Positions 5,546 through 16,673 of a DNA stretch of 16,673 nucleotides are shown piece by piece; the stretch's first letter is position 1, and every line of letters begins with the position of its first letter. Source of the DNA: Candidatus Eiseniibacteriota bacterium (GTDB lineage Bacteria; Eisenbacteria; RBG-16-71-46); NCBI GenBank assembly GCA_044222065.1, contig JBGAOA010000082.1, forward strand, positions 1 through 16,673, written 5' to 3'. Both the position numbers and the translations under genes were made by a program. The notes under the pieces are model-generated. The model saw only the letters and a program-made list of their open reading frames with translations, was not told the DNA's origin and made no database searches.

Positions 5546-8500
5546 TCAGCGCAACCGGACCACGCTCGCCTTCCGCACCTCGATGCGCGAGCCGTCGTCC
5601 ACGCGCGCACGCACGAAGTAGAGGCCCGCGCCCGGCAGGTCGCGCGACAGCGGCAGGCGATGCGCGCCCGCGCCGAGCGCGCCGTCGGCGAGTACGGCCA
5701 CTTCGCGGCCCGTCACGTCGTACACGCGCACCGACACGTTCGCCGCGACCGGCAGGTCGAGCGCGAGCACGGGGGAGGCGCCCGGCGAGCCGAGCGGCGC
5801 GAAGCGCAGCGCGGTGAAGGTGGAGGGCGCAGGCGTGTGGTCCTCGACGCCAAGAATCGGCAGCAGCACGACGACGACCACGCTGTTCCCGTTGTAGACC
5901 ACGCCGAAGCGGCCGTTCAGCGGCTCGCCCTGTACGGTCACGTTGGCGAACGTGCCGCTCACGATGCCGGTGCACTGGATCACCGTGAAGCTGTCGCCGG
6001 GCACGCCGTTGAAGCTCGGCAGCAGTTTCAGCTCGAGCGTGCCGCCGAGGAACGCGTGAGTGGACTTGAGCGTGTCGTACTCCGAAGTCGCGTGATTGCC
6101 GAGCTCGACTTCGAGCGTGCCGTTCGACATCGATAGGGACGCCGACGTCGAGATCTTGCGAGCGCCCGTCCCGGGCGCGACGCGGCCCTTGACGACGAGG
6201 TTCTGGGTCAGGCTGCCGGCGCCGCTCAAGCGACCCGAAGTCTCGACGTTGAACGCGAAGCCCGAACCGCCGGTGAGGGTCGTGTTGTCCAGGACGACCT
6301 CCCCGTACAACGAGGTGTTCGAGGCTTGCTGGAGGGCGAGCACGCGCGACCGCGGCCCCTCGATCCGGCCGCGCAGGGTGAGGTCGTTCGGGCTCCAGAG
6401 TCGGCCGAGTACCAGCTGGTCGGTCGCGTGCACGACCGCGCCCGAATCCACCGTGACCGCGCAGTCCATAGCGCCCGCGCCATCGAAGCGCGCCCCGGCG
6501 AGGAACTGGACCAGCGTGCCGCTCGTGCTCGCGCCGGTGCCGTACATCGTGCCGGCGATCTTGAGGCCGGCCCCGCTCGTGATCACGTCGCCGCGCGGGG
6601 TGAACGGGCCGAAGATCGTGCCGTCGCCGACGAGGCGCTTGCCGGACTCGAGCACGCCGCCGCCCGCGGGCAGGTGCAGCTCTCCGCCCGACAGCTCGAC
6701 GACGCCGACGATCGCCGAGTCGGGGTCGTGGATCGTCACGACGTTCGGGCCCACGTCGAGCAGGCCGCGGATCAGCACGTCGCCGTTGCCGGTGTCGCGC
6801 CCCAGGTCGAGCGCTCCGCCCGCGAGGATCATCACGGTCGTGTCGGTGCCGGCGAGGATGGACGAGCTCACGGTGCCGCCGCCGACGATGATCCCGGTGT
6901 CGCGAAGCAGCAGCGAGCCGCCGCTCCACGTGCCGCTGTCCAGTTCGATGTTGCCTCGCACGGTCATCGCGCCCTGCACGTTCACCGTGGCGTTCGTCAG
7001 CACGCCGATCGTGCCCGGCGTGCCCGGCCCCTTCCAGATCGTGCCCGCGACGACGGGGGCGAGCAGGTTGAGCGTCGCGCCGTCGTTCACGACGACCGTG
7101 CCGTAGTTGCCCTGCGCGAGCGTCGAGCCCGCGACGTTGAACGCGCCGGTGCTGTTGAGCATCGAGCCCGCGCCCGTCAGGAGCAGCGTGCCGCTCCCGG
7201 TCGCGGTCTCGCCGACGTTCACGCCGCTCGTCGAGACGATTCCGCCCGCGTCCACGGCCACGTACGCCTGCCCGGCCGAACCGACCACGAACGTGCGGTT
7301 GGTCGAGAGCGTGCTGCCCGCGCCGTAGACGTCCACCTGTGCGACCGAGCCCGCGTTCTGCGCGGCGATCACGTTGCCGCCGTTCGCGACCACGTCCGCG
7401 CCGCCGAGCACGTCGAACACCGCGCCGCCCGTCGAGGCGACGATGAGGGGCGGCGTCGCGGTCGCGCCCGTGAACGTCGCGGCAGCGCCGTTCATGAGCT
7501 GGAGCTTCGGCGTGTCGTTGCCGTCGGTCGCGCCTCCCGGGATCGTGAGCCGGTTCGTGAACGTCGAGAACGTTCCGCCGTCCACCTGCAGCAGCCCACC
7601 CTGCAGGTCCACGGTCGAGCCGGCGGGCTGCTGCAGAATGAGGTGCTTCGTGCGCATGCGGCTGTCGGGCTGGATCGTGATCGTGCCCGAGCTGCCGTCC
7701 GGATCGCCGACGATCGTCGAGTCGTCCACGACGAGCACGCCGAGCGAATCGAGCGTGATCGTTCCCGTGCCGCCCGCAGCACCGCTCGCGGGGTCGTAGG
7801 CGAGCTTGAGGCTGCCTTTCACCTTCACGGTCGAGCTGTCGATGACGTTCTTGCCCGTGATCGTGACGTCGCCGATGTCGGACGCGCCCTCGGCCACGAC
7901 GAGATTGCGCCCGATGCGGAAGAGCCCGCCGTCCTGCACCTCGAGGATGCCGTGCCCGCCGCTGCGCCCGAGCCGGCAGTCGGCAGTCGCGCTGTCGGCG
8001 AGGAACTGCGCGCGCCGGGTGCCGCTGCCCGTCGCGCCCGCGCCGCGCACGCGCAGCGTGCCGAGGCTTCCCGCGTTCCGGCCGACGTTGACGTGGAAGG
8101 CGGGCGTGAACGAGGCGCCGTTGATCACGACGAGTTCGCCGGTGCCGGCGCTCGTCGTGCCCGAGCCCGCGATGTTCACGACCGGCCCCTCGCCCGAGGC
8201 GCCGAACGTGTTCTGCGTGACGTTCACGGTGCCGCCCGAGAGTCGCAGCGTTCCGGTCGCGCCGGTGCCCGCGCCGACGCTCGTGGACCAGCCGAAGCGC
8301 ATGTCGCCCGACAGGAGTCGCGCGGTCGCGACGAGTCCCGCGGTCGAGGCGACGTGGAAGCCGGTGCCGACGTTGTGCAGCACGGACGGCGACAGCGTGA
8401 CGTCGCCGCCGAAGATCTGGTGCGTCTGCACCGAGTCCACCGTGCCGTTGAGCGTCACGGTGTAGGTGTTCGCGAGGTCGAAGCGCAGGAGGTCGGCCAC

Positions 8501-8671
8501 GGTCGGCACCTGCGCGGGATTCCAGTTCGCGGCGTTGGACGCGGCGCCGCCGGCGGCGTTCTGCCACACGAGCGTGACCGCGTGCGCGGCGAGCGGAGCG
8601 GCGAGCGCGCCCGCGAGGGCGAGCGGAAGGGCGAAGCGGCGCGGGTGGGCCGCGCGGATCGGAAACGGCAT
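5546..8671 (-). CDS. Large exported beta-helical (autotransporter passenger-like) protein with T5SS/PEP-CTERM-associated-type repeats and C-terminal FlgD-Ig/T9SS-like domain, 1041 aa
   Basis: RBS GAGGAG and ATG at 8671 (MPFPIRAAH...AHA|VT). N-terminal W...GG...NAANWNP...VP...D cap, Gly/Thr/Val-rich repeats (VGETATGSGTLLLTGAGS), autochaperone-like VAPG...GTLEVELG...YDTL...LGGTL...GDSFTVI...SGTFANV, then VYDVTGREVAVL...GAGAH...GLYFVRA. Confidence 0.85.
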   Translation of the reverse strand: MPFPIRAAHPRRFALPLALAGALAAPLAAHAVTLVWQNAAGGAASNAANWNPAQVPTVADLLRFDLANTYTVTLNGTVDSVQTHQIFGGDVTLSPSVLHNVGTGFHVASTAGLVATARLLSGDMRFGWSTSVGAGTGATGTLRLSGGTVNVTQNTFGASGEGPVVNIAGSGTTSAGTGELVVINGASFTPAFHVNVGRNAGSLGTLRVRGAGATGSGTRRAQFLADSATADCRLGRSGGHGILEVQDGGLFRIGRNLVVAEGASDIGDVTITGKNVIDSSTVKVKGSLKLAYDPASGAAGGTGTITLDSLGVLVVDDSTIVGDPDGSSGTITIQPDSRMRTKHLILQQPAGSTVDLQGGLLQVDGGTFSTFTNRLTIPGGATDGNDTPKLQLMNGAAATFTGATATPPLIVASTGGAVFDVLGGADVVANGGNVIAAQNAGSVAQVDVYGAGSTLSTNRTFVVGSAGQAYVAVDAGGIVSTSGVNVGETATGSGTLLLTGAGSMLNSTGAFNVAGSTLAQGNYGTVVVNDGATLNLLAPVVAGTIWKGPGTPGTIGVLTNATVNVQGAMTVRGNIELDSGTWSGGSLLLRDTGIIVGGGTVSSSILAGTDTTVMILAGGALDLGRDTGNGDVLIRGLLDVGPNVVTIHDPDSAIVGVVELSGGELHLPAGGGVLESGKRLVGDGTIFGPFTPRGDVITSGAGLKIAGTMYGTGASTSGTLVQFLAGARFDGAGAMDCAVTVDSGAVVHATDQLVLGRLWSPNDLTLRGRIEGPRSRVLALQQASNTSLYGEVVLDNTTLTGGSGFAFNVETSGRLSGAGSLTQNLVVKGRVAPGTGARKISTSASLSMSNGTLEVELGNHATSEYDTLKSTHAFLGGTLELKLLPSFNGVPGDSFTVIQCTGIVSGTFANVTVQGEPLNGRFGVVYNGNSVVVVVLLPILGVEDHTPAPSTFTALRFAPLGSPGASPVLALDLPVAANVSVRVYDVTGREVAVLADGALGAGAHRLPLSRDLPGAGLYFVRARVDDGSRIEVRKASVVRLR

Positions 8672-9920: not shown

Positions 9921-11213
9921 TCAGGAAACGCGCACGAACGACGGCCCCTCTGCGGGGTGCGTGCGCCGCAGTCGCGGGAACGCCGCCGCGAGCCACGTCG
10001 CGACGGCGGCGATCCACGCGGCCGCTGCGGCGGCATAGGCCCCGGGGAGCCAGTCCGGAGGCATCGCCGCGGCGGCGAGGCGCAGCGCGAGCGCCGCGGC
10101 AACGCACGCGACGACCGGCGCGCCGTAGAGGCGCGACTCGTCGCGTTGCGGATGGCGGCCGTGCGAGATCGTGACGCGCGTCGCGATCCCGAGCGTCAGG
10201 AGCCCGAAGCCGCCGACGAACGTGACGTGCAGCGCCGCGATCTCGTGGGCGCGCGCGATCGCGGCGATCAGCAGGCCGAGTCCGGTCATCGACCCCGTCG
10301 CCCACAGCGCCCAGCCGTAGAGGTCGCGCCGCATCGGCGTGCGCCACACCTTCCACACCCCGAGCACCTGGGTCCCACCCGCGAGCGCGCGCAGCAACGC
10401 GCCGGCGCTCGCGCGCCCGGCGGCTTCGAGCGCGAACGCGCCCGCGAACGCGAGCGCGAGCGCGGCGTACAGCGCGCGCCGGCCGCGGCGCTCGTGCGGC
10501 TTCGCGAGCCCCGGGATCGCGAGGGGCTCGCGGATGCCGGCGAAAGGCGGCACGAGCAGCGCGCCGACGCCGAGCACGAGCGACAGCACCATGCCGAGCG
10601 ACACGAGCCGCGCGGCGAAGTTCGGCGCGGGATCGGCGAAGCGCCCGAGTGTCGCGAGCGCCTGGAGCACGCCGCCCGCGAGTCCGCACGCGAGGCCGAG
10701 GCCGACGAACGCGAACTCTTCCGGCGGTTTCGCGTGCGCGCCGAGGATGCGCCGCAGCAGCGTGAGTCCGATGTGCAGGACGGCGAGCGCGAACGCCGCG
10801 TGGGCGAGGAGCGCGGCGCCCGCGAGCGCGCCACCGAGTCCCGCGAGCACGAGCGCGAGCCCGGTCGCGAGCTCCCACGGGCGGCAGCGCTCGCCGCGGG
10901 TGAACGCGGGCATCGCCGTGAACAGGAAACCCATGACGAAGCACAGCTCGAAGCCTTGCACCATGAGCGTGCGGTGCAGCGCCGCGGGGTAGGCGAGCAC
11001 GCCGAGCGGCCACAGGAGCCACGGCGCCGTGCCCGCGATGGCCGCGAGCGCGCCGAGCGGGAACAGCAGCCGGTAGGGATCGGGCGCGCCGCTCGCGAGC
11101 TTCAGCGGCGAGGCGTCGGCGCGCGTCGGCGCCGCGACGTCGCGAATCGGGATCGCGCGCGGCGGCGTGGCCGCGGGCGGAGCCGCGGGCGCCCCGGGCC
11201 CGTTCGAGTTCAC
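9921..11213 (-). CDS. nnrS: NnrS-family membrane protein (nitrosative stress response)
   Basis: GTG start overlaps the nosY stop (GTGA). PYRLLFPLG...HRTLMVQGFELCFVMGFLFTAMPAFT and ALHVTFVGGFG...ATRVTISHG match NnrS motifs. Many hydrophobic helices. Confidence 0.8.
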   Translation of the reverse strand: MNSNGPGAPAAPPAATPPRAIPIRDVAAPTRADASPLKLASGAPDPYRLLFPLGALAAIAGTAPWLLWPLGVLAYPAALHRTLMVQGFELCFVMGFLFTAMPAFTRGERCRPWELATGLALVLAGLGGALAGAALLAHAAFALAVLHIGLTLLRRILGAHAKPPEEFAFVGLGLACGLAGGVLQALATLGRFADPAPNFAARLVSLGMVLSLVLGVGALLVPPFAGIREPLAIPGLAKPHERRGRRALYAALALAFAGAFALEAAGRASAGALLRALAGGTQVLGVWKVWRTPMRRDLYGWALWATGSMTGLGLLIAAIARAHEIAALHVTFVGGFGLLTLGIATRVTISHGRHPQRDESRLYGAPVVACVAAALALRLAAAAMPPDWLPGAYAAAAAAWIAAVATWLAAAFPRLRRTHPAEGPSFVRVS

Positions 11214-12058
11214 CAGTCGCGCTTCCGGAACACGCGCGCCGCGATCGCGAGCGGCACCGCGGTCTCGATCGCGAGCACGGCGAGGCCGAGCGCGACGCCG
11301 CCCGTCGTGCCGAAGAGCTTCACGAGCACGGCGGAGGTGGGCCCGAACAGCGCGCCCGAGCCGACCGCGAGCGTGACGAGCACGCGCGCGAGGTCCACGG
11401 GGTTCGCGAGCAGCGCCGGGAACAGCACGCGCTCGAGCGGCAGCCCGCTCAGCATCGTCGTCGCGCCGACCACGGCGAGATCGTAGGCGACGACCATCGT
11501 GAGCCACAGCAGCAGGGCGAGCGACATCGCCTTGAGCCGGTCGGGCCACAGCGCGGCGATCGCGAGCGCCGCGGCGAGGCACAGCGCCCCGAGCACGAAC
11601 GACAGCGCGGTGAGCGCGAGGTAGCCCGGCAGCTGCTCGGCGCCGGCGTTGAACGCGACAACGAGCCCTCCGCCGCCGAACCCGAGCGCCTGCGCGACGC
11701 CGAGCGCCGCGGCGAGACCGAGGAACTTGCCCGCGAGCACTTCGCCGCGCGTCACGGGCTGCGCGAGCAGCAGCGGCAGCGTCTCGCCGCCGCCTGCGAT
11801 GCTCGTCACGCCGAGCAGCAGCGCCGCAAGCGGCACGATGAGCAGCACGAGGTTCATGAGCGACAGCGTCACGCGCGCGAAGCCCTGGAAGCCCACTTCG
11901 CGGCTCTGCGCGAGCCCGAAGTACGAAAGCCCGAGCACGAGCAGCGCGAACGCGGTCGTGAAGCCGAACAGCCAGCGCGTCTCGAGCGCGCGACGGTATT
12001 CCTCGCGCGCGACGATGCCGACGCGCCGGAGCGATGCGGCGAGGGGTGTGGCGCTCAT
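11210..12058 (-). CDS. nosY: NosY ABC transporter permease
   Basis: ATG at 12058 overlaps the upstream stop. AREEYR..L..RW, SLMNL...IVPL.AL, TLPLLLAQPVTRGEVLAGKFLG, LLLW...YD, ANPVDLAR. Located in the nos cluster. Confidence 0.9.
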   Translation of the reverse strand: MSATPLAASLRRVGIVAREEYRRALETRWLFGFTTAFALLVLGLSYFGLAQSREVGFQGFARVTLSLMNLVLLIVPLAALLLGVTSIAGGGETLPLLLAQPVTRGEVLAGKFLGLAAALGVAQALGFGGGGLVVAFNAGAEQLPGYLALTALSFVLGALCLAAALAIAALWPDRLKAMSLALLLWLTMVVAYDLAVVGATTMLSGLPLERVLFPALLANPVDLARVLVTLAVGSGALFGPTSAVLVKLFGTTGGVALGLAVLAIETAVPLAIAARVFRKRDW

Positions 12059-12471
12059 CGGTGTCCCTCCACGAGGTGCGAGCCCGTCACGGCGAGGCGG
12101 CCGACGGGTTCGTTGCCGACGAGCCATGCGAACCCTTCGCCCGGCAGGTCGGCGTCGAACGTGACGCTCCAGCGCGCGCCGGGCGCGAGCGCCGCGACGT
12201 TCACGCGGTCTTCGTAGCCGGCGAGACGAACCGAGAGCGGCGCGGCGTCGCGATTGACGAGCGTGACGGTGACGCGCGCGCCCTTCGGCACCATGGCTTC
12301 GGCCGGCTCGATCGCGGCGTGCGACACCTCGAAGTCGAGGGCGGCCACGGGCGCGGGCGCCGGAGCCGCCGCGATCGCGCGCGGCGCGCGGTACGGCAGG
12401 CGCGCGAGCACGGCGAGCAGCGCGGCCGCGACCACGACGCCGAGCACGAGCAGGCGGTAGGCGCGGCTCAT
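12055..12471 (-). CDS. Membrane-anchored cupredoxin-like protein lacking canonical Cu ligands (138 aa)
   Basis: ATGA overlaps on both sides. N-terminal hydrophobic anchor, Pro/Ala linker, then IEPAEAMVPKGARVTVTLVNRD...LAPGARWSVTFDADLPG...GRLAV, the cupredoxin strand pattern. No Cys in the protein. Confidence 0.7.
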   Translation of the reverse strand: MSRAYRLLVLGVVVAAALLAVLARLPYRAPRAIAAAPAPAPVAALDFEVSHAAIEPAEAMVPKGARVTVTLVNRDAAPLSVRLAGYEDRVNVAALAPGARWSVTFDADLPGEGFAWLVGNEPVGRLAVTGSHLVEGHR

Positions 12472-12899
12472 CGCGCGGCTCCTGCGGCGAACGCGGCGAG
12501 CCGGTCGACGCGGCCCGCGGTGCGCGCGGCGATCGTGTCGGCGGTCGCGCGGTCCGCGAACGCCGCGAATCCGCCGCCCATCGGCGAGGGGAACGAGCCC
12601 TTCACGACCCACAGCGACTCGGCGGCGTGCAGCGACTTCGTGTCGTAGTCGGCGAGCCACGCGCGGTCCGCGCCGTCGCGGATCAGGCACTCGATCGAGT
12701 CGTACACGCGCCAGCCCTGCGCGGTCTCGCGCTCGCACGCGAAGCGGCGGTCGCCCGCCGTCATGCCGCACGCGGCGCACGTCGCGCCGTCGGCGATCGG
12801 CGGCGGCCCCGTGCGCCGGGCGCAGCCGGGCGAGGCGAGGGCGCCGCCGAGCAGCGCGATCACGGCCACGAGGGCCCGCGTGCGAACGCGCGCGCTCAC
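12468..12899 (-). CDS. nosL: NosL copper chaperone lipoprotein
   Basis: GTG start overlaps the nosF stop. Lipobox-like SPGC, CAACGM, YDSIEC and SPMGGG..AF motifs. Confidence 0.9.
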   Translation of the reverse strand: MSARVRTRALVAVIALLGGALASPGCARRTGPPPIADGATCAACGMTAGDRRFACERETAQGWRVYDSIECLIRDGADRAWLADYDTKSLHAAESLWVVKGSFPSPMGGGFAAFADRATADTIAARTAGRVDRLAAFAAGAAR

Positions 12900-13801
12900 G
12901 GCCGGCCTCCGCGCACGACCTCGAGGAACACGTCCTCGAGCGTGGGACGCTGCATCTCGAACGCGCGCACGCCGACGCCCGCGACGCGCAGCGCCTCGAG
13001 CGCTTCGTGCGCGCGGCCGTCCGCGCCTTCGACCGCGAGGACGCGTTCGCCCGCGGTCACGCGGTCGAAGCCGCGCGCCTCCAGCGCCGTGTGGGCGCGC
13101 GCTTCGTCGCCGGCGAGCTGCACGACGAGCCGCGTCGCGCGCAGCTGGCGCTCCCGCAGGTCCGTGAGCCGTTCGAGCGCCGCGCGGCGTCCGCCGACGA
13201 GGATCAGCACGCGGTCGGCGACGCGCTCGACCTCGGACAGCAGGTGGGAGCAGAGCAGGATCGTGCGGCCCTCGCGCCGCAGCGTTTCGACGAGCGTGCG
13301 GAACTCCCACGTCGCCTCGGGATCGAGGCTCGCCGTCGGCTCGTCGAGCACGAGCAGGTCGGGTTCACCGAGCAGCGCCTGCGCGAGCGAGAGCCGCTGC
13401 GAGTAGCCGCCCGACAGTTCGGTCGCGCGGCGGCTCGCGAGCGGCGCGAGGCCGACGCGCTCGAGCGCGCGGTCCACGGCCGCGTCGGGCAGCGCGCGCA
13501 GTTCGGCGTAGAAGCGCAGCACGTCGCGCACCGTGCGGCCGGCGGGGAACTCGACGCGCTGCGGGACGTAGCCGAGCGAGGCGCGCGCGCGCGCGTCGGA
13601 TGGCGGCAGCCCGGCCTCGCCGAGCGCGATCGTGCCCGAGTCCGGGCGCGCGAGGCCGAGCAGCATCTTGAGCGTCGTCGTCTTGCCCGCGCCGTTCGGG
13701 CCGATGAGCGCGAACGTCTCGCCGCGTTCGACCGCGAACGACAGGCCGTCGACGGCGACGACGGCGCCGTACGATTTGCGCAGATCCGAGACGTGGATCA
13801 C
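12896..13801 (-). CDS. nosF: NosF ABC transporter ATPase
   Basis: RBS GGAGG, GTG start overlapping the nosD stop. Walker A GPNGAGKTT, Q-loop YVPQ, signature LSGGYSQR, Walker B LLVLDEP, H-loop SH. Confidence 0.9.
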   Translation of the reverse strand: MIHVSDLRKSYGAVVAVDGLSFAVERGETFALIGPNGAGKTTTLKMLLGLARPDSGTIALGEAGLPPSDARARASLGYVPQRVEFPAGRTVRDVLRFYAELRALPDAAVDRALERVGLAPLASRRATELSGGYSQRLSLAQALLGEPDLLVLDEPTASLDPEATWEFRTLVETLRREGRTILLCSHLLSEVERVADRVLILVGGRRAALERLTDLRERQLRATRLVVQLAGDEARAHTALEARGFDRVTAGERVLAVEGADGRAHEALEALRVAGVGVRAFEMQRPTLEDVFLEVVRGGRP

Positions 13802-15174
13802 GCGGACCTCCGGCGCCGAACGAAGCCGGCGAGCCCGCCCGTGAAGAGCGCCGCGAACGCGAAGCGCGCGCCCCACGACGCGCGCGCGCCGTACGGGCGC
13901 TCGAGCGCGTGGCCGGTGCCGGTCACGGCGACGGGCGTCACGCGCGGATGGCGGTCCACCGCCTCGCTCGGCCGCAGCGCGGGCACGACGCGCTCGGCCA
14001 CGCCGAGCGCCGCGACCGCCGGGCTCTTCGCGAGCACCGAGAGGTCGGGGTACTGCTTCGAGACGAACGCGAACGCCGTGACGGGCGAGTACGGCACGTC
14101 GCCGCGGCGGTCGCCGTCGAGGTCGTAGGGCGCGTGTTCGCTCCAGTAGTTGCCCTGCTCGCCGTCGTCGAAGCGGTTCGTCGTGTACTTCATGTCGAGC
14201 GCGACGGGGTAGTCGTTGTTGACGAAGTCGTTCCCGGCGACCTCGTTCTGCGCGCACGAGGCGAAGATCAGCAGTCCCCAGCCGTTGTCCTGGACGAGGT
14301 TCCCGCGGAAGCGATTGCGGTTCGAGTTGTCGAGGAACGCCGCGATGGTGTTGTCCACCATCCGGTTGTTCGTGAACTCCCCGTCCGAGCAGTCGCGCAA
14401 GAGCAGCCCGTACGTGCGCGGGCCGCGGTTGCGCCAGAAGTCGTTGCGCTCGACCCGCAGGTGGTTCGAGAACATGATCGCGCAGCCCGCGACGTTCGTG
14501 AGGAAGCGGTTCGCGACGAGGTCGTTGCGCTGGCAGTACATCGTGTGCAGGCCGTAGCGCCCGCAGTCGTGCAGCACGTTCGCCTCGACGTGCGCGCGGT
14601 CCACGAACGACAGGTAGATGCCGTCGGTGAAGCGCTGGACGTCGTTCGCGACGAGCCGCGGGTCGGCGCAGTACCAGAGGTGGATGCCGTTGCCCTCGCC
14701 GTCTTCCTTCATCGGGGGCACGCGGCCGACGAACGTGCAGCGCTCGATCGCGAGATCCGCGGCGCGCTCGGCGTACACGCCGTAGAGCACGTCTTCGAAG
14801 CGCACGCGACGGATCGCGACGTTCGCGGCGCGGATCACGCGAATGCCGCTGTCCACGGTCAGGACGCGCGCGCCGCTGCCGCGCACGTCGACGTCCTCGA
14901 CGACCGAGCCGTTCGCGGCGATCGCGATCACGGTGCCCGCGCGCGGCCCTTCGATGACCGCGCCGGCCTCGCCGCGAAGCGTCAGGCGCCGCTCGATGCG
15001 CACGGGCCCTCGGTGCACTCCGGCGGCGAGCACGAGCGTGTCGCCCTCCGAGGTGGCGGAGAGTGCGCGCGCGAGCGCCCCCGGCGTCGCCGGCACGCGC
15101 ACGGCGGCCCGTGCGTCGAGCGAGCCGAGCGCGAACGCGAACGCGGCGAGGGCGAGGGTGGGGCGCAGGCGCAC
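13798..15174 (-). CDS. nosD: NosD periplasmic beta-helix maturation protein
   Basis: Probable GTG start at 15174 (uncertain). Signal peptide, GDTLVL..G, GNGIHLWY, DGIY, RYGLHTMY, AIMFS (His/Met/Met Cu site) and GNYWS....YDLDGD..GD.PY. Confidence 0.92.
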   Translation of the reverse strand: MRLRPTLALAAFAFALGSLDARAAVRVPATPGALARALSATSEGDTLVLAAGVHRGPVRIERRLTLRGEAGAVIEGPRAGTVIAIAANGSVVEDVDVRGSGARVLTVDSGIRVIRAANVAIRRVRFEDVLYGVYAERAADLAIERCTFVGRVPPMKEDGEGNGIHLWYCADPRLVANDVQRFTDGIYLSFVDRAHVEANVLHDCGRYGLHTMYCQRNDLVANRFLTNVAGCAIMFSNHLRVERNDFWRNRGPRTYGLLLRDCSDGEFTNNRMVDNTIAAFLDNSNRNRFRGNLVQDNGWGLLIFASCAQNEVAGNDFVNNDYPVALDMKYTTNRFDDGEQGNYWSEHAPYDLDGDRRGDVPYSPVTAFAFVSKQYPDLSVLAKSPAVAALGVAERVVPALRPSEAVDRHPRVTPVAVTGTGHALERPYGARASWGARFAFAALFTGGLAGFVRRRRSA

Positions 15175-15185
15175 CGTGACCGCCG

Positions 15186-15779
15186 TCAGGCCGAGCGCCG
15201 CGCGCGCCGTTCGAGCCAGAAGATCGCGGGGCCGAGCAGCCACGCGATGCCGAGCAGCACCGTACCGAGGCCGGGAATGCTCAGCACCTTGAAGTTCGCC
15301 ATCTGCTTGAAGCCGATGAGCGGCGGCGTGAACGCCGGCAGCGTGATGGCCGCGCGCGGATCGAGTTCGTGGCCGTACGCGTAAAGCCACTTCGCGAAGT
15401 CCACGAACATGACCCCCGCGAACACCGTGAACGCCACCCAGCCGAGCACCGCGAGCCAGCGCCGGCGCGTGATCGCGGCCAGCAGCGCGAACACACCGAA
15501 CACCGACAGCGCCTGCGGCATGAAGCGGAACTCGCGGAAGTCGGCGTCGCGGATCGGCTTCATGCCCACGTAGTGGTTCAGCGTGTTCACCTTGTCGACG
15601 TCGCCCTTGATGGTGTTCGTGTAGATGCGCAGCTCGAGCCCTTCGGGGTACTGGGGCGCGCGCATCTTCATGTGCCAGATCGGGAGCACGGGCAGGAAGA
15701 ACACCGGCAGCAGCACGAGCGCCACCAGCGCCACCAGCAAGCGTTCGCGGCCGCTCAGCAAACCCATCAGGTAACTCAT
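15186..15779 (-). CDS. nosB: NosB membrane protein of clade II nos clusters
   Basis: ATG at 15779. PIW....APQYPEGL.L.I, INTLNHYVGM-like VNTLNHYVGMKPI, WLY.YGH.LDP.A.I, FTPPLIG.KQMANF and four hydrophobic segments, directly after nosZ. Confidence 0.88.
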   Translation of the reverse strand: MSYLMGLLSGRERLLVALVALVLLPVFFLPVLPIWHMKMRAPQYPEGLELRIYTNTIKGDVDKVNTLNHYVGMKPIRDADFREFRFMPQALSVFGVFALLAAITRRRWLAVLGWVAFTVFAGVMFVDFAKWLYAYGHELDPRAAITLPAFTPPLIGFKQMANFKVLSIPGLGTVLLGIAWLLGPAIFWLERRARRSA

Positions 15780-15832: not shown

Positions 15833-16672
15833 TCAGCGCTGCGCGATCGCCGCGTTGATCTCGGCGATCTTCTTCGCGTCGGGCCGCTGCACGGCCGCGA
15901 CGGGGGAACCCTTCGGCCGCACCTCGATCAGGCCCTGCATCTCCTGGTGCAGCGCGCTGCAGAAGTTCGAGCAGTAGAACGGCGTGATGCCGGCCTTCTC
16001 GGCCTTCCAGTGCATCGTCTTCGTCTCGCCGGGCTCGATCTGCATGTTGCAGTTCGACCACAGGATGCCGAAGCCGTGCGCGATGTCGTCGTCCTGCTCC
16101 AGGTTCGTGACGTGGAAGTACACGTCGTCGCCCTCGTTCACGCGCACCACGTCGGGCGTGAAGTGCGTGCGCACCGCGAGCATGTACACGTCCACGCGCG
16201 TGCCCTTGCGCTCGATGCGGGCGTCCTCGGCCTTCTTGATCGCACCGGGCTTGGCGTTCTGCTCGAGCGGATACACCGTGAAGGGCTTCAACTTCTCGGC
16301 GCGAATCATCTGCGCGTAGTGCGGCTCGAGGTACGTGGGGAAGTCCATCAGCAGTTCCATCTTCGGCCCGCGCAGGTCCACGAGCTGCGCCGCCTCGGGG
16401 TGCGTGGGGCCCACGTTCAGGTAGCGGTCCTTCGACAGCTTGTCGAGCGCCACCACGTAGTCGCCGGTCGGGTGCCGCGTGTCGCCCTCGGACGCCATGA
16501 GGTGGCCGATCGAGTAGTAGACGTCGATCTTGTCCACCACGTTCCACGGCGGACCCACCTTCCACTTCGCGATCTGCGAGTCCAGGAACAGCGACGTGTA
16601 GGCGAAGCCCTTGTCGTCGAACTGCGTGTGCAGCGGGCCCAGGCCCACCGGCACCTTCGCCTCGATGACGTC
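15833..16672 (-). CDS. nosZ: Nitrous oxide reductase, clade II type, C-terminal part (5' end outside the window)
   Basis: GLGPLHTQFD, AYTSLFLDSQIAKW, SIGH, LSKDRYL.VGP, EPH and the CuA domain TNLEQ..DIAHGF...YCSNFCSALHQEM. FCSALH is the clade II-type pattern. The frame is open to the window end. Confidence 0.97.
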   Translation of the reverse strand, partial: DVIEAKVPVGLGPLHTQFDDKGFAYTSLFLDSQIAKWKVGPPWNVVDKIDVYYSIGHLMASEGDTRHPTGDYVVALDKLSKDRYLNVGPTHPEAAQLVDLRGPKMELLMDFPTYLEPHYAQMIRAEKLKPFTVYPLEQNAKPGAIKKAEDARIERKGTRVDVYMLAVRTHFTPDVVRVNEGDDVYFHVTNLEQDDDIAHGFGILWSNCNMQIEPGETKTMHWKAEKAGITPFYCSNFCSALHQEMQGLIEVRPKGSPVAAVQRPDAKKIAEINAAIAQR

Positions 16673-16673
16673 G

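Follow-up and report, generated by a model that had tools for sequence, protein, structure and literature searches.

We describe a small gene, here called X, which lies on the reverse strand within a nitrous oxide (N2O) reductase (nos) operon of a Candidatus Eiseniibacteriota bacterium (contig JBGAOA010000082.1 of assembly GCA_044222065.1; the whole stretch analysed, 16,673 nucleotides, is referred to as the window). X encodes a predicted membrane-anchored protein of cupredoxin fold without the ligands of a type-1 or CuA copper site, it is encoded in nos operons only, as expected of a Nos maturation factor, and a domain of the same type occurs elsewhere fused to the C-terminus of the copper chaperone NosL. 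This NosL-X fusion is a new finding. Judged from its sequence and its neighbourhood, X is a previously unlabelled component of a clade II-type nos maturation operon and very probably a dedicated nos accessory protein. We favour, with a probability of about 0.5, a model according to which X is a non-cytoplasmic, membrane-tethered adaptor handing Cu(I) to NosDFY via its invariant His.

A cupredoxin-fold protein lacking a canonical copper site

The preliminary description of the window had proposed a Cys-free open reading frame of 138 amino acids ending in GSHLVEGHR, coupled by ATGA overlaps to both the nosL stop and the nosY start and encoding an N-terminal anchor, a Pro/Ala stalk and a cupredoxin-like fold. 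All of these features were recovered:

12055..12471 (-): gene X, 138 amino acids, anchored cupredoxin-fold protein without type-1/CuA ligands (open reading frame, fold prediction)
12403..12465 (-): N-terminal hydrophobic helix, residues 3-23 (AlphaFold2 model, alignment)
12349..12402 (-): Pro/Ala stalk, residues 24-41 (sequence, model)
12085..12348 (-): cupredoxin barrel, residues 42-129 (model, structural matches, alignment)
12076..12078 (-): codon of His132 in the GxH motif, invariant throughout the family
12066..12070 (-): Shine-Dalgarno-like GGAGG of nosY, within X codons 134-136 and 7 nucleotides 5' of the ATG
12061..12063 (-): codon of the variable His137, in the spacer between the nosY Shine-Dalgarno motif and start codon

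The AlphaFold2 model of X, built from 57 sequences (predicted local distance difference test, pLDDT, 92.6; predicted template modelling score, pTM, 0.69), shows the helix, the stalk and nine strands forming the Greek-key beta-barrel of the cupredoxin superfamily, the terminal block 131-138 being of low confidence (pLDDT 57). The best structural matches (Foldseek, VIA-align) are all cupredoxins, reaching at most a Z-score of 12.3 with a root-mean-square deviation of 1.6 over 84 residues. The Z-scores for 4HCF (12.3), nitrosocyanin (11.5), CupA (11.2), EfeO (11.2), FtrB (10.8) and NosZ (10.6) are so close together that no function is singled out. The ligand loop of type-1 and CuA sites is shortened to a hairpin in X, with the turn V118-P122 in place of the Cys-His-Met loop, and Leu79 presumably occupies the place of the upstream His, as mapped from general cupredoxin topology.

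X carries neither the type-1 ligands (His plus Cys-x-His-x-Met), with no alignment column holding Cys in 8 or more of the 151 sequences, nor a CuA site (H...CxxxCxxxHxxM), and traits of NosL (lipobox, CxxCxM, NosL fold) were not found in it either. It scores 24 bits (E 3.9e-5) against the 27-bit gathering cut-off of Pfam Cupredoxin_1, the EfeO-type family, and some of its homologues bear a precomputed Cupredoxin_1 label. An NCBIfam scan returned no family at E<=0.01, and a sequence search of the PDB returned just weak cupredoxin matches and two designed proteins. Among the best 7993 candidates scored, the X profile matches at least 528 proteins at E<=0.001, showing that X is not a chance open reading frame.

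Nos operons and NosL fusions carrying X

X is a lineage-restricted family, represented here by metagenome-derived records only. The counts that follow reflect linkage and should not be read as a statistical test, the genomes being kin and not independent; assignment to Ca. Eisenbacteria follows homologue names and record titles. Among 206 Ca. Eisenbacteria genomes, 74 match the X profile, 70 of these matches being X and four weak ones being NosZ CuA domains. X sits in a nos cluster in all 70 genomes and is directly followed by nosY in 69, the remaining one stopping at a contig end. A scan of GTDB contigs by pattern with an alignment query retrieved 52 loci, all of them nos clusters, while a single-protein query retrieved none. 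The suggestion of an unnamed, nos-dedicated accessory protein without canonical ligands is thereby borne out. A profile of the window-type nosY matches 75 of the 206 genomes. Besides the 70 with X, these are one whose locus is cut off at the contig end, two with partial fragments and two of a distant lineage, a distribution that ties X to a single nos operon lineage. The two partial fragments G038:C182 (L182) and G047:C284 (L183) are solitary nosY 3' ends, the stretch around them lacking any further nos gene, and nosZ was not found in either genome.

In the genome of the window X is single-copy as assembled. X is present in 28 of 61 related genomes, all 28 also having nosZ; six of the 61 carry nosZ without X, three of them owing to assembly gaps and three belonging to a distant nos lineage with NosZ about 50% identical. 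A loss of X from the nosZ-positive genomes G022, G025 and G044 was considered and rejected, since their contigs end before the place of X and nosY was not found there either. Upstream of X, nosL is found in 38 of the 70 operons and nosF abuts directly in 28, four being unreadable; nosL is thus absent from 28 of 66 readable operons that retain X, the losses being spread over several genera and families. As Pfam NosL (PF05573) overlooked most NosL of this lineage (9 of 34, compared to 20 of 34 with the window NosL), the window NosL was taken as query; used as single query, it had no match in 10 of the 28 X-positive relatives, and these 10 include genomes that are 97-100% complete.

Among the side observations on these operons, contig C9 of genome G020 (L090) encodes NosZ 98% and NosB 92% identical to those of the window with NosD being only 59% identical, which suggests a recent exchange of the nosZ-nosB block; the same genome has two nosY copies. 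Simultaneous frameshifts in X and several neighbours on very long contigs (L081, L082/L093, L033) more likely reflect sequencing error than decay.

An exhaustive search with the X profile gave 59 representatives at E<=1e-30, below which ordinary cupredoxins are mixed with lipoproteins of 240-260 amino acids having NosL at the N-terminus and an X-like domain at the C-terminus. Pfam NosL was detected at the N-terminus of seven of ten such candidates scanned, and a further search yielded 18 sequences at E<=1e-10. Named records come from Thermoanaerobaculales, Acidobacteriota and Ca. Kryptoniota. The fusion-type set examined comprises 27 sequences, two of them in one 90% cluster. GxH and PGxxF are present in all 27 and GY/GF in 25, the second His of the X tail in none; CxxCxM is kept in 23, the other four being N-terminally short. 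The predicted fusion structure (pLDDT 84.2, pTM 0.76) matches the NosL structures 7OG7 and 7ZNQ_L as well as cupredoxins; atlas matches for the fusion (score 0.82) are leads only. P0255 was rejected as a fusion, as its sequence resembles a frameshifted read-through of nosF-nosL-X.

The relationship between X and the fused domain is supported by hhalign (99.4%, E 3.3e-21). A fused-domain profile ranks three held-out fusion-type sequences first, followed by 49 X proteins (35-55 bits) and then by the first type-1 cupredoxin (34.6 bits), its targets having been drawn from the X-profile search, which favours X. A tree was built from 54 domains chosen by hand, of which 17 were from X, 15 from fusions, 16 from other cupredoxins and 6 were NosZ CuA domains; in it, X and the fused domains are separated from all others with a support of 100/98, the bootstrap being not fully settled; the tree gives no direction, leaving fusion and fission indistinguishable. 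In the 45 metagenome loci whose context we inspected, all of the Acidobacteriota type and many of them close relatives, nosY lies directly 3' of the fusion in 36; six loci are too short and the three without nosY are two truncated copies and one 1-kb contig. nosF lies directly 5' in 33 of the 45, so that the order nosF-[nosL::X]-nosY mirrors that of the window. These fusions provide an independent link of X to copper delivery.

Three fusion-type operons contain an unannotated lipoprotein of about 168 amino acids between nosB and nosD (L139:4875-5381, L150:5068-5574, L136:5022-5579). In locus L032 (1378-4401), NosZ has a lipobox-like signal, and 5' of nosZ, reading by eye gave a monohaem lipoprotein cytochrome c and what may be a hemerythrin-like gene. 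Of the outgroup rows in the tree, the closest branch to the X family is another group of Cys-less cupredoxins, which has an HLHGYD motif (P0257, P0267, P0272); in one case it looks, by eye, fused to a CopC-like domain.

Conserved residues, the junction with nosY and the surrounding operon

The barrel residues G85, Y86, F105, P110 and G111 are found in 151 of 151 close homologues and G130, S131 and H132 in 150 of 150. In the anchor region, Y5, L8, R24 and P26 recur in 135-142 of 148-150 homologues in the alignment. His132 is present in 70/70 genomes, in 61/61 full-length representatives and in all 27 fusion-type sequences. His137 is found in 61 of the 70 genomes (seven having Arg, one Thr and one Ser). 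The conservation expected for the terminal SH..EGH therefore holds for its first His and not for its second.

The codons of the final E-G-H-R of X hold the Shine-Dalgarno motif and the start codon of nosY. The stop codon of X overlaps with a start pattern in 70 of 70 genomes (61 RTGA, 9 TGATG), and Shine-Dalgarno-like words are found in the tail codons at 59 of 70 X/nosY junctions. At G136, 30 of 66 Gly codons are GGA, a codon used for 17 of 285 Gly in eight genes of the window; at R138, CGA accounts for 37 of 53 Arg codons compared to 2 of 209. These words, overlaps and rare codons indicate that the tail is constrained partly as RNA, and conservation purely at the protein level was rejected. 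A copper relay on a C-terminal His pair, as had been envisaged, is thus no longer tenable, and the sequence comparisons point to His132 as the functional His of the family.

The operon has the order nosZ (truncated at the end of the contig), nosB, nosD, nosF, nosL, X, nosY, nnrS:

15833..16673 (-): 3' part of nosZ, clade II-type, CuA motif intact, cut by the contig end; best family TIGR04246
15186..15782 (-): NosB-type membrane protein, carrying LNHYVGM and YGH
13798..15210 (-): nosD, the start codon being our choice
12896..13801 (-): nosF ATPase (family match)
12468..12899 (-): nosL lipoprotein with CxxCxM, D-x3-C and PM methionine
11210..12058 (-): nosY, NosY-type ABC-2 permease, translationally coupled to X
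9921..11213 (-): nnrS, overlapping the nosY stop via GTGA

The window NosZ is nearest to the Sec-dependent family TIGR04246, the cut-off of which is exceeded by a full-length relative (locus L032). A second nosZ (G000:C8:11979-12776, locus L089), 88% identical to that of the window, terminates at the end of contig C8; with the window nosZ lacking its 5' part, this copy may be a paralogue or reflect a strain-mixed assembly. H222, M224 and M246 of the window NosD align with H207, M209 and M231 of P. stutzeri NosD, which we take to be its copper site; this His/Met/Met site was reportedly described by Muller in 2022. The C-terminus of NosD (13798-13890, -) is hydrophobic and rich in Gly and closes with Arg residues, resembling a C-terminal membrane anchor or sorting signal; this tail falls beyond the region aligning with P. 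stutzeri NosD. Of 28 relatives most have it, as do the fusion loci and some clusters without X. The NosL ligands listed above are those kept on comparison with the available text of PMC8457098, and the two NosB motifs are those given in the available text of PMC9697520. The coupling of nnrS to nosY is accompanied by nnrS lying 3' of nosY in many related operons. Eleven RNA-library runs cover a small share of the stretch (0.06-0.21), and one of four runs inspected contains a 317-base contig spanning nosL/X (assembled contigs, without a silent-stretch control).

Elsewhere in the window, a zinc-metalloprotease-like secreted protein with an HELGH motif (1697-2662, +) and a large secreted repeat protein (about 5546-8665, -) share a similar C-terminal domain (V.VYDV.GR.VA.L), all noted by eye.

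Proposed copper handover to NosDFY and competing explanations

According to the available text of PMC8457098, a His from outside serves as fourth Cu ligand on Cu-NosL, and an exposed His of a partner was proposed to mobilise Cu(I); the review PMC13685413, as far as available, assigns to NosDFY the transfer of Cu(I) from NosL to the enzyme. X would fit this proposal if it were a tethered adaptor that contributes the exposed His, with CupA as a precedent for an anchored cupredoxin-fold chaperone. The X domain would face the periplasm because its fused form is C-terminal to the lipoprotein NosL. By cupredoxin topology, G85-Y86, D108-x-P110-G111 and G130-x-H132 would come together at the end of the barrel that faces away from the lost copper site, adjoining the stalk in X and the NosL domain in the fusions. 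His132 may then act as an outside ligand, either lifting Cu(I) off the Cys/Met/Met site of NosL or completing the His/Met/Met site of NosD. In operons without nosL, X may bring NosDFY copper of other origin or act as its docking subunit, and the persistence of His132 without nosL makes NosD/NosY the more likely standing partner.

Several observations weigh against copper handover by X. A single His without Cys or conserved Met would be a weak Cu(I) site alone, the conserved surface cluster derives from topology and not from coordinates, and the tail bearing His132 has a pLDDT of 57. The 28 nosL-less operons keep His132 and 10 of the 28 X-positive relatives gave no NosL match, so that NosL is not the sole partner of X. 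X is missing from the stretches examined of seven nos clusters of the distant lineage, which shows it not to be needed for NosZ assembly generally. Lys and Arg residues around the anchor average 1.9 before and 3.1 after it, and such charges do not fix its orientation. When X was modelled together with two NosY (5-282) and NosD (170-428), the complex scored 0.12 against a mark of 0.32 without folded controls, which counts as evidence in neither direction.

Most of the remaining weight falls on X being a metal-free structural subunit, a possible though less probable reading, in which X or the fused domain docks to NosY/NosD and positions NosL or stabilises NosDFY with His132 as an interface residue. 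X is tied closer to nosY (69/70) than to nosL (38/66) and strictly coupled to nosY in translation, conservation of Y5, L8, R24 and P26 is unusual for a plain anchor, and the invariant residues are mostly Gly, Pro or aromatic; however, the sole invariant ionisable residue across X and the fusions is a His just beyond the barrel, and NosL, to which the domain is fused, is a copper chaperone. A redox or other-metal site resembling that of FtrB/EfeO, in which Cu(II) or a different metal would be bound by the His and carboxylates (E87/D88, D108, E135), perhaps to alter the copper oxidation state prior to insertion, appears unlikely. FtrB and the EfeO domain are among the best fold matches, FtrB binds Cu(II) via the non-canonical Asp118 (His121 being predicted) and oxidises Fe(II), as stated in the available text of PMC11966278, and D108 and D88 are found in 148 and 137 of 151 X sequences, but the Z-scores do not set FtrB apart from nitrosocyanin and CupA (10.8-12.3), the acidic residues vary in the fusions and the FtrB motif RKEKV is absent from the X consensus.

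The CuA-domain mimic raised in the preliminary description, here read as a decayed CuA domain of NosZ that would occupy the NosZ site on NosD, is weakened and now improbable: the shared fold and weak profile matches to NosZ CuA domains speak for it, whereas the tree places these domains among ordinary cupredoxins and away from X, the window NosZ scores 6.9 bits compared to 39.4 for X on the fused-domain profile, and conservation appears to lie at the pole opposite the CuA site. Least credible of all, we consider it very improbable that X is a cytoplasmic CupA-like chaperone supplying copper from inside. Lys and Arg are more numerous after than before the anchor in 116 of 146 homologues and CupA is a fold match, yet the fused form follows the lipoprotein NosL domain, the net charge difference is near zero with the window NosL also having RR after its lipobox Cys, and the Cys/Met ligands of CupA are absent from X.

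Comparison with known systems places X beside rather than within them, the sources being used to the extent of their available text. X shares operon and pathway with NosL/NosDFYL (PMC8457098; PMC13685413; PDB 7ZNQ), but is not among the components named there and differs from NosL by its cupredoxin fold, the lack of a Cys/Met site and its retention where nosL is lost. S. pneumoniae CupA (4F2E; PMC7558416) likewise combines a single membrane anchor with a cupredoxin barrel and hands metal to a transporter; it acts on the cytoplasmic side for CopA through a binuclear Cys/Met Cu(I) site, whereas X has no Cys, belongs to a nos context and is probably periplasmic. The N-terminal cupredoxin domains of FtrB and EfeO and B. 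anthracis 4HCF (Pfam Cupredoxin_1) are the closest folds; FtrB and EfeO are transporter-associated and FtrB, like X, lacks a type-1 site, but both serve iron uptake with other motifs, X having its own GY / DxPG / GxH signature. X is no member of the FtrB family (Cup-II; D118/H121, EXE, RKEKV, ftrABCD context; PMC11966278). The recently found NosP and NosQ (bioRxiv 10.64898/2025.12.16.694761) are also small extra nos genes, aiding maturation in one lineage; they occur with clade I nosZ only, mainly in Proteobacteria, have no signal peptide and bind NosZ, a cupredoxin being unmentioned in the main text. X differs by its clade II-type nosZ and hydrophobic N-terminus, a distinction drawn from description and not from sequence. 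The NosB-NosL fusion of Dyadobacter and flavobacteria (PMC9697520) is a precedent for NosL joined to another nos accessory protein, its partner being the polytopic, N-terminal NosB and not a C-terminal cupredoxin domain. A literature search mostly outside subscription papers turned up no account of either X or a fusion of NosL to a cupredoxin, and cluster-map figures or supplements may show the gene unlabelled.

N2O reductase is the main biological sink of N2O and is limited by its copper loading, for which the route from NosL via NosD to NosZ is established in clade I Proteobacteria. More tentatively, X may point to a NosL-independent copper route, in which a cupredoxin without redox site has become a one-His relay on NosDFY, welded onto NosL in some phyla and replacing the lost NosL in many Eisenbacteria operons. 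PMC8457098, in its available text, leaves open which partner His lifts Cu(I) off NosL and states that clade II NosL must differ. The X family offers a concrete candidate for this His partner with one residue to mutate, the NosL-X fusion would represent a natural donor-acceptor pair that could be crystallised, and the 28 operons that lost nosL yet kept X add natural cases in which such a partner may serve NosDFY.
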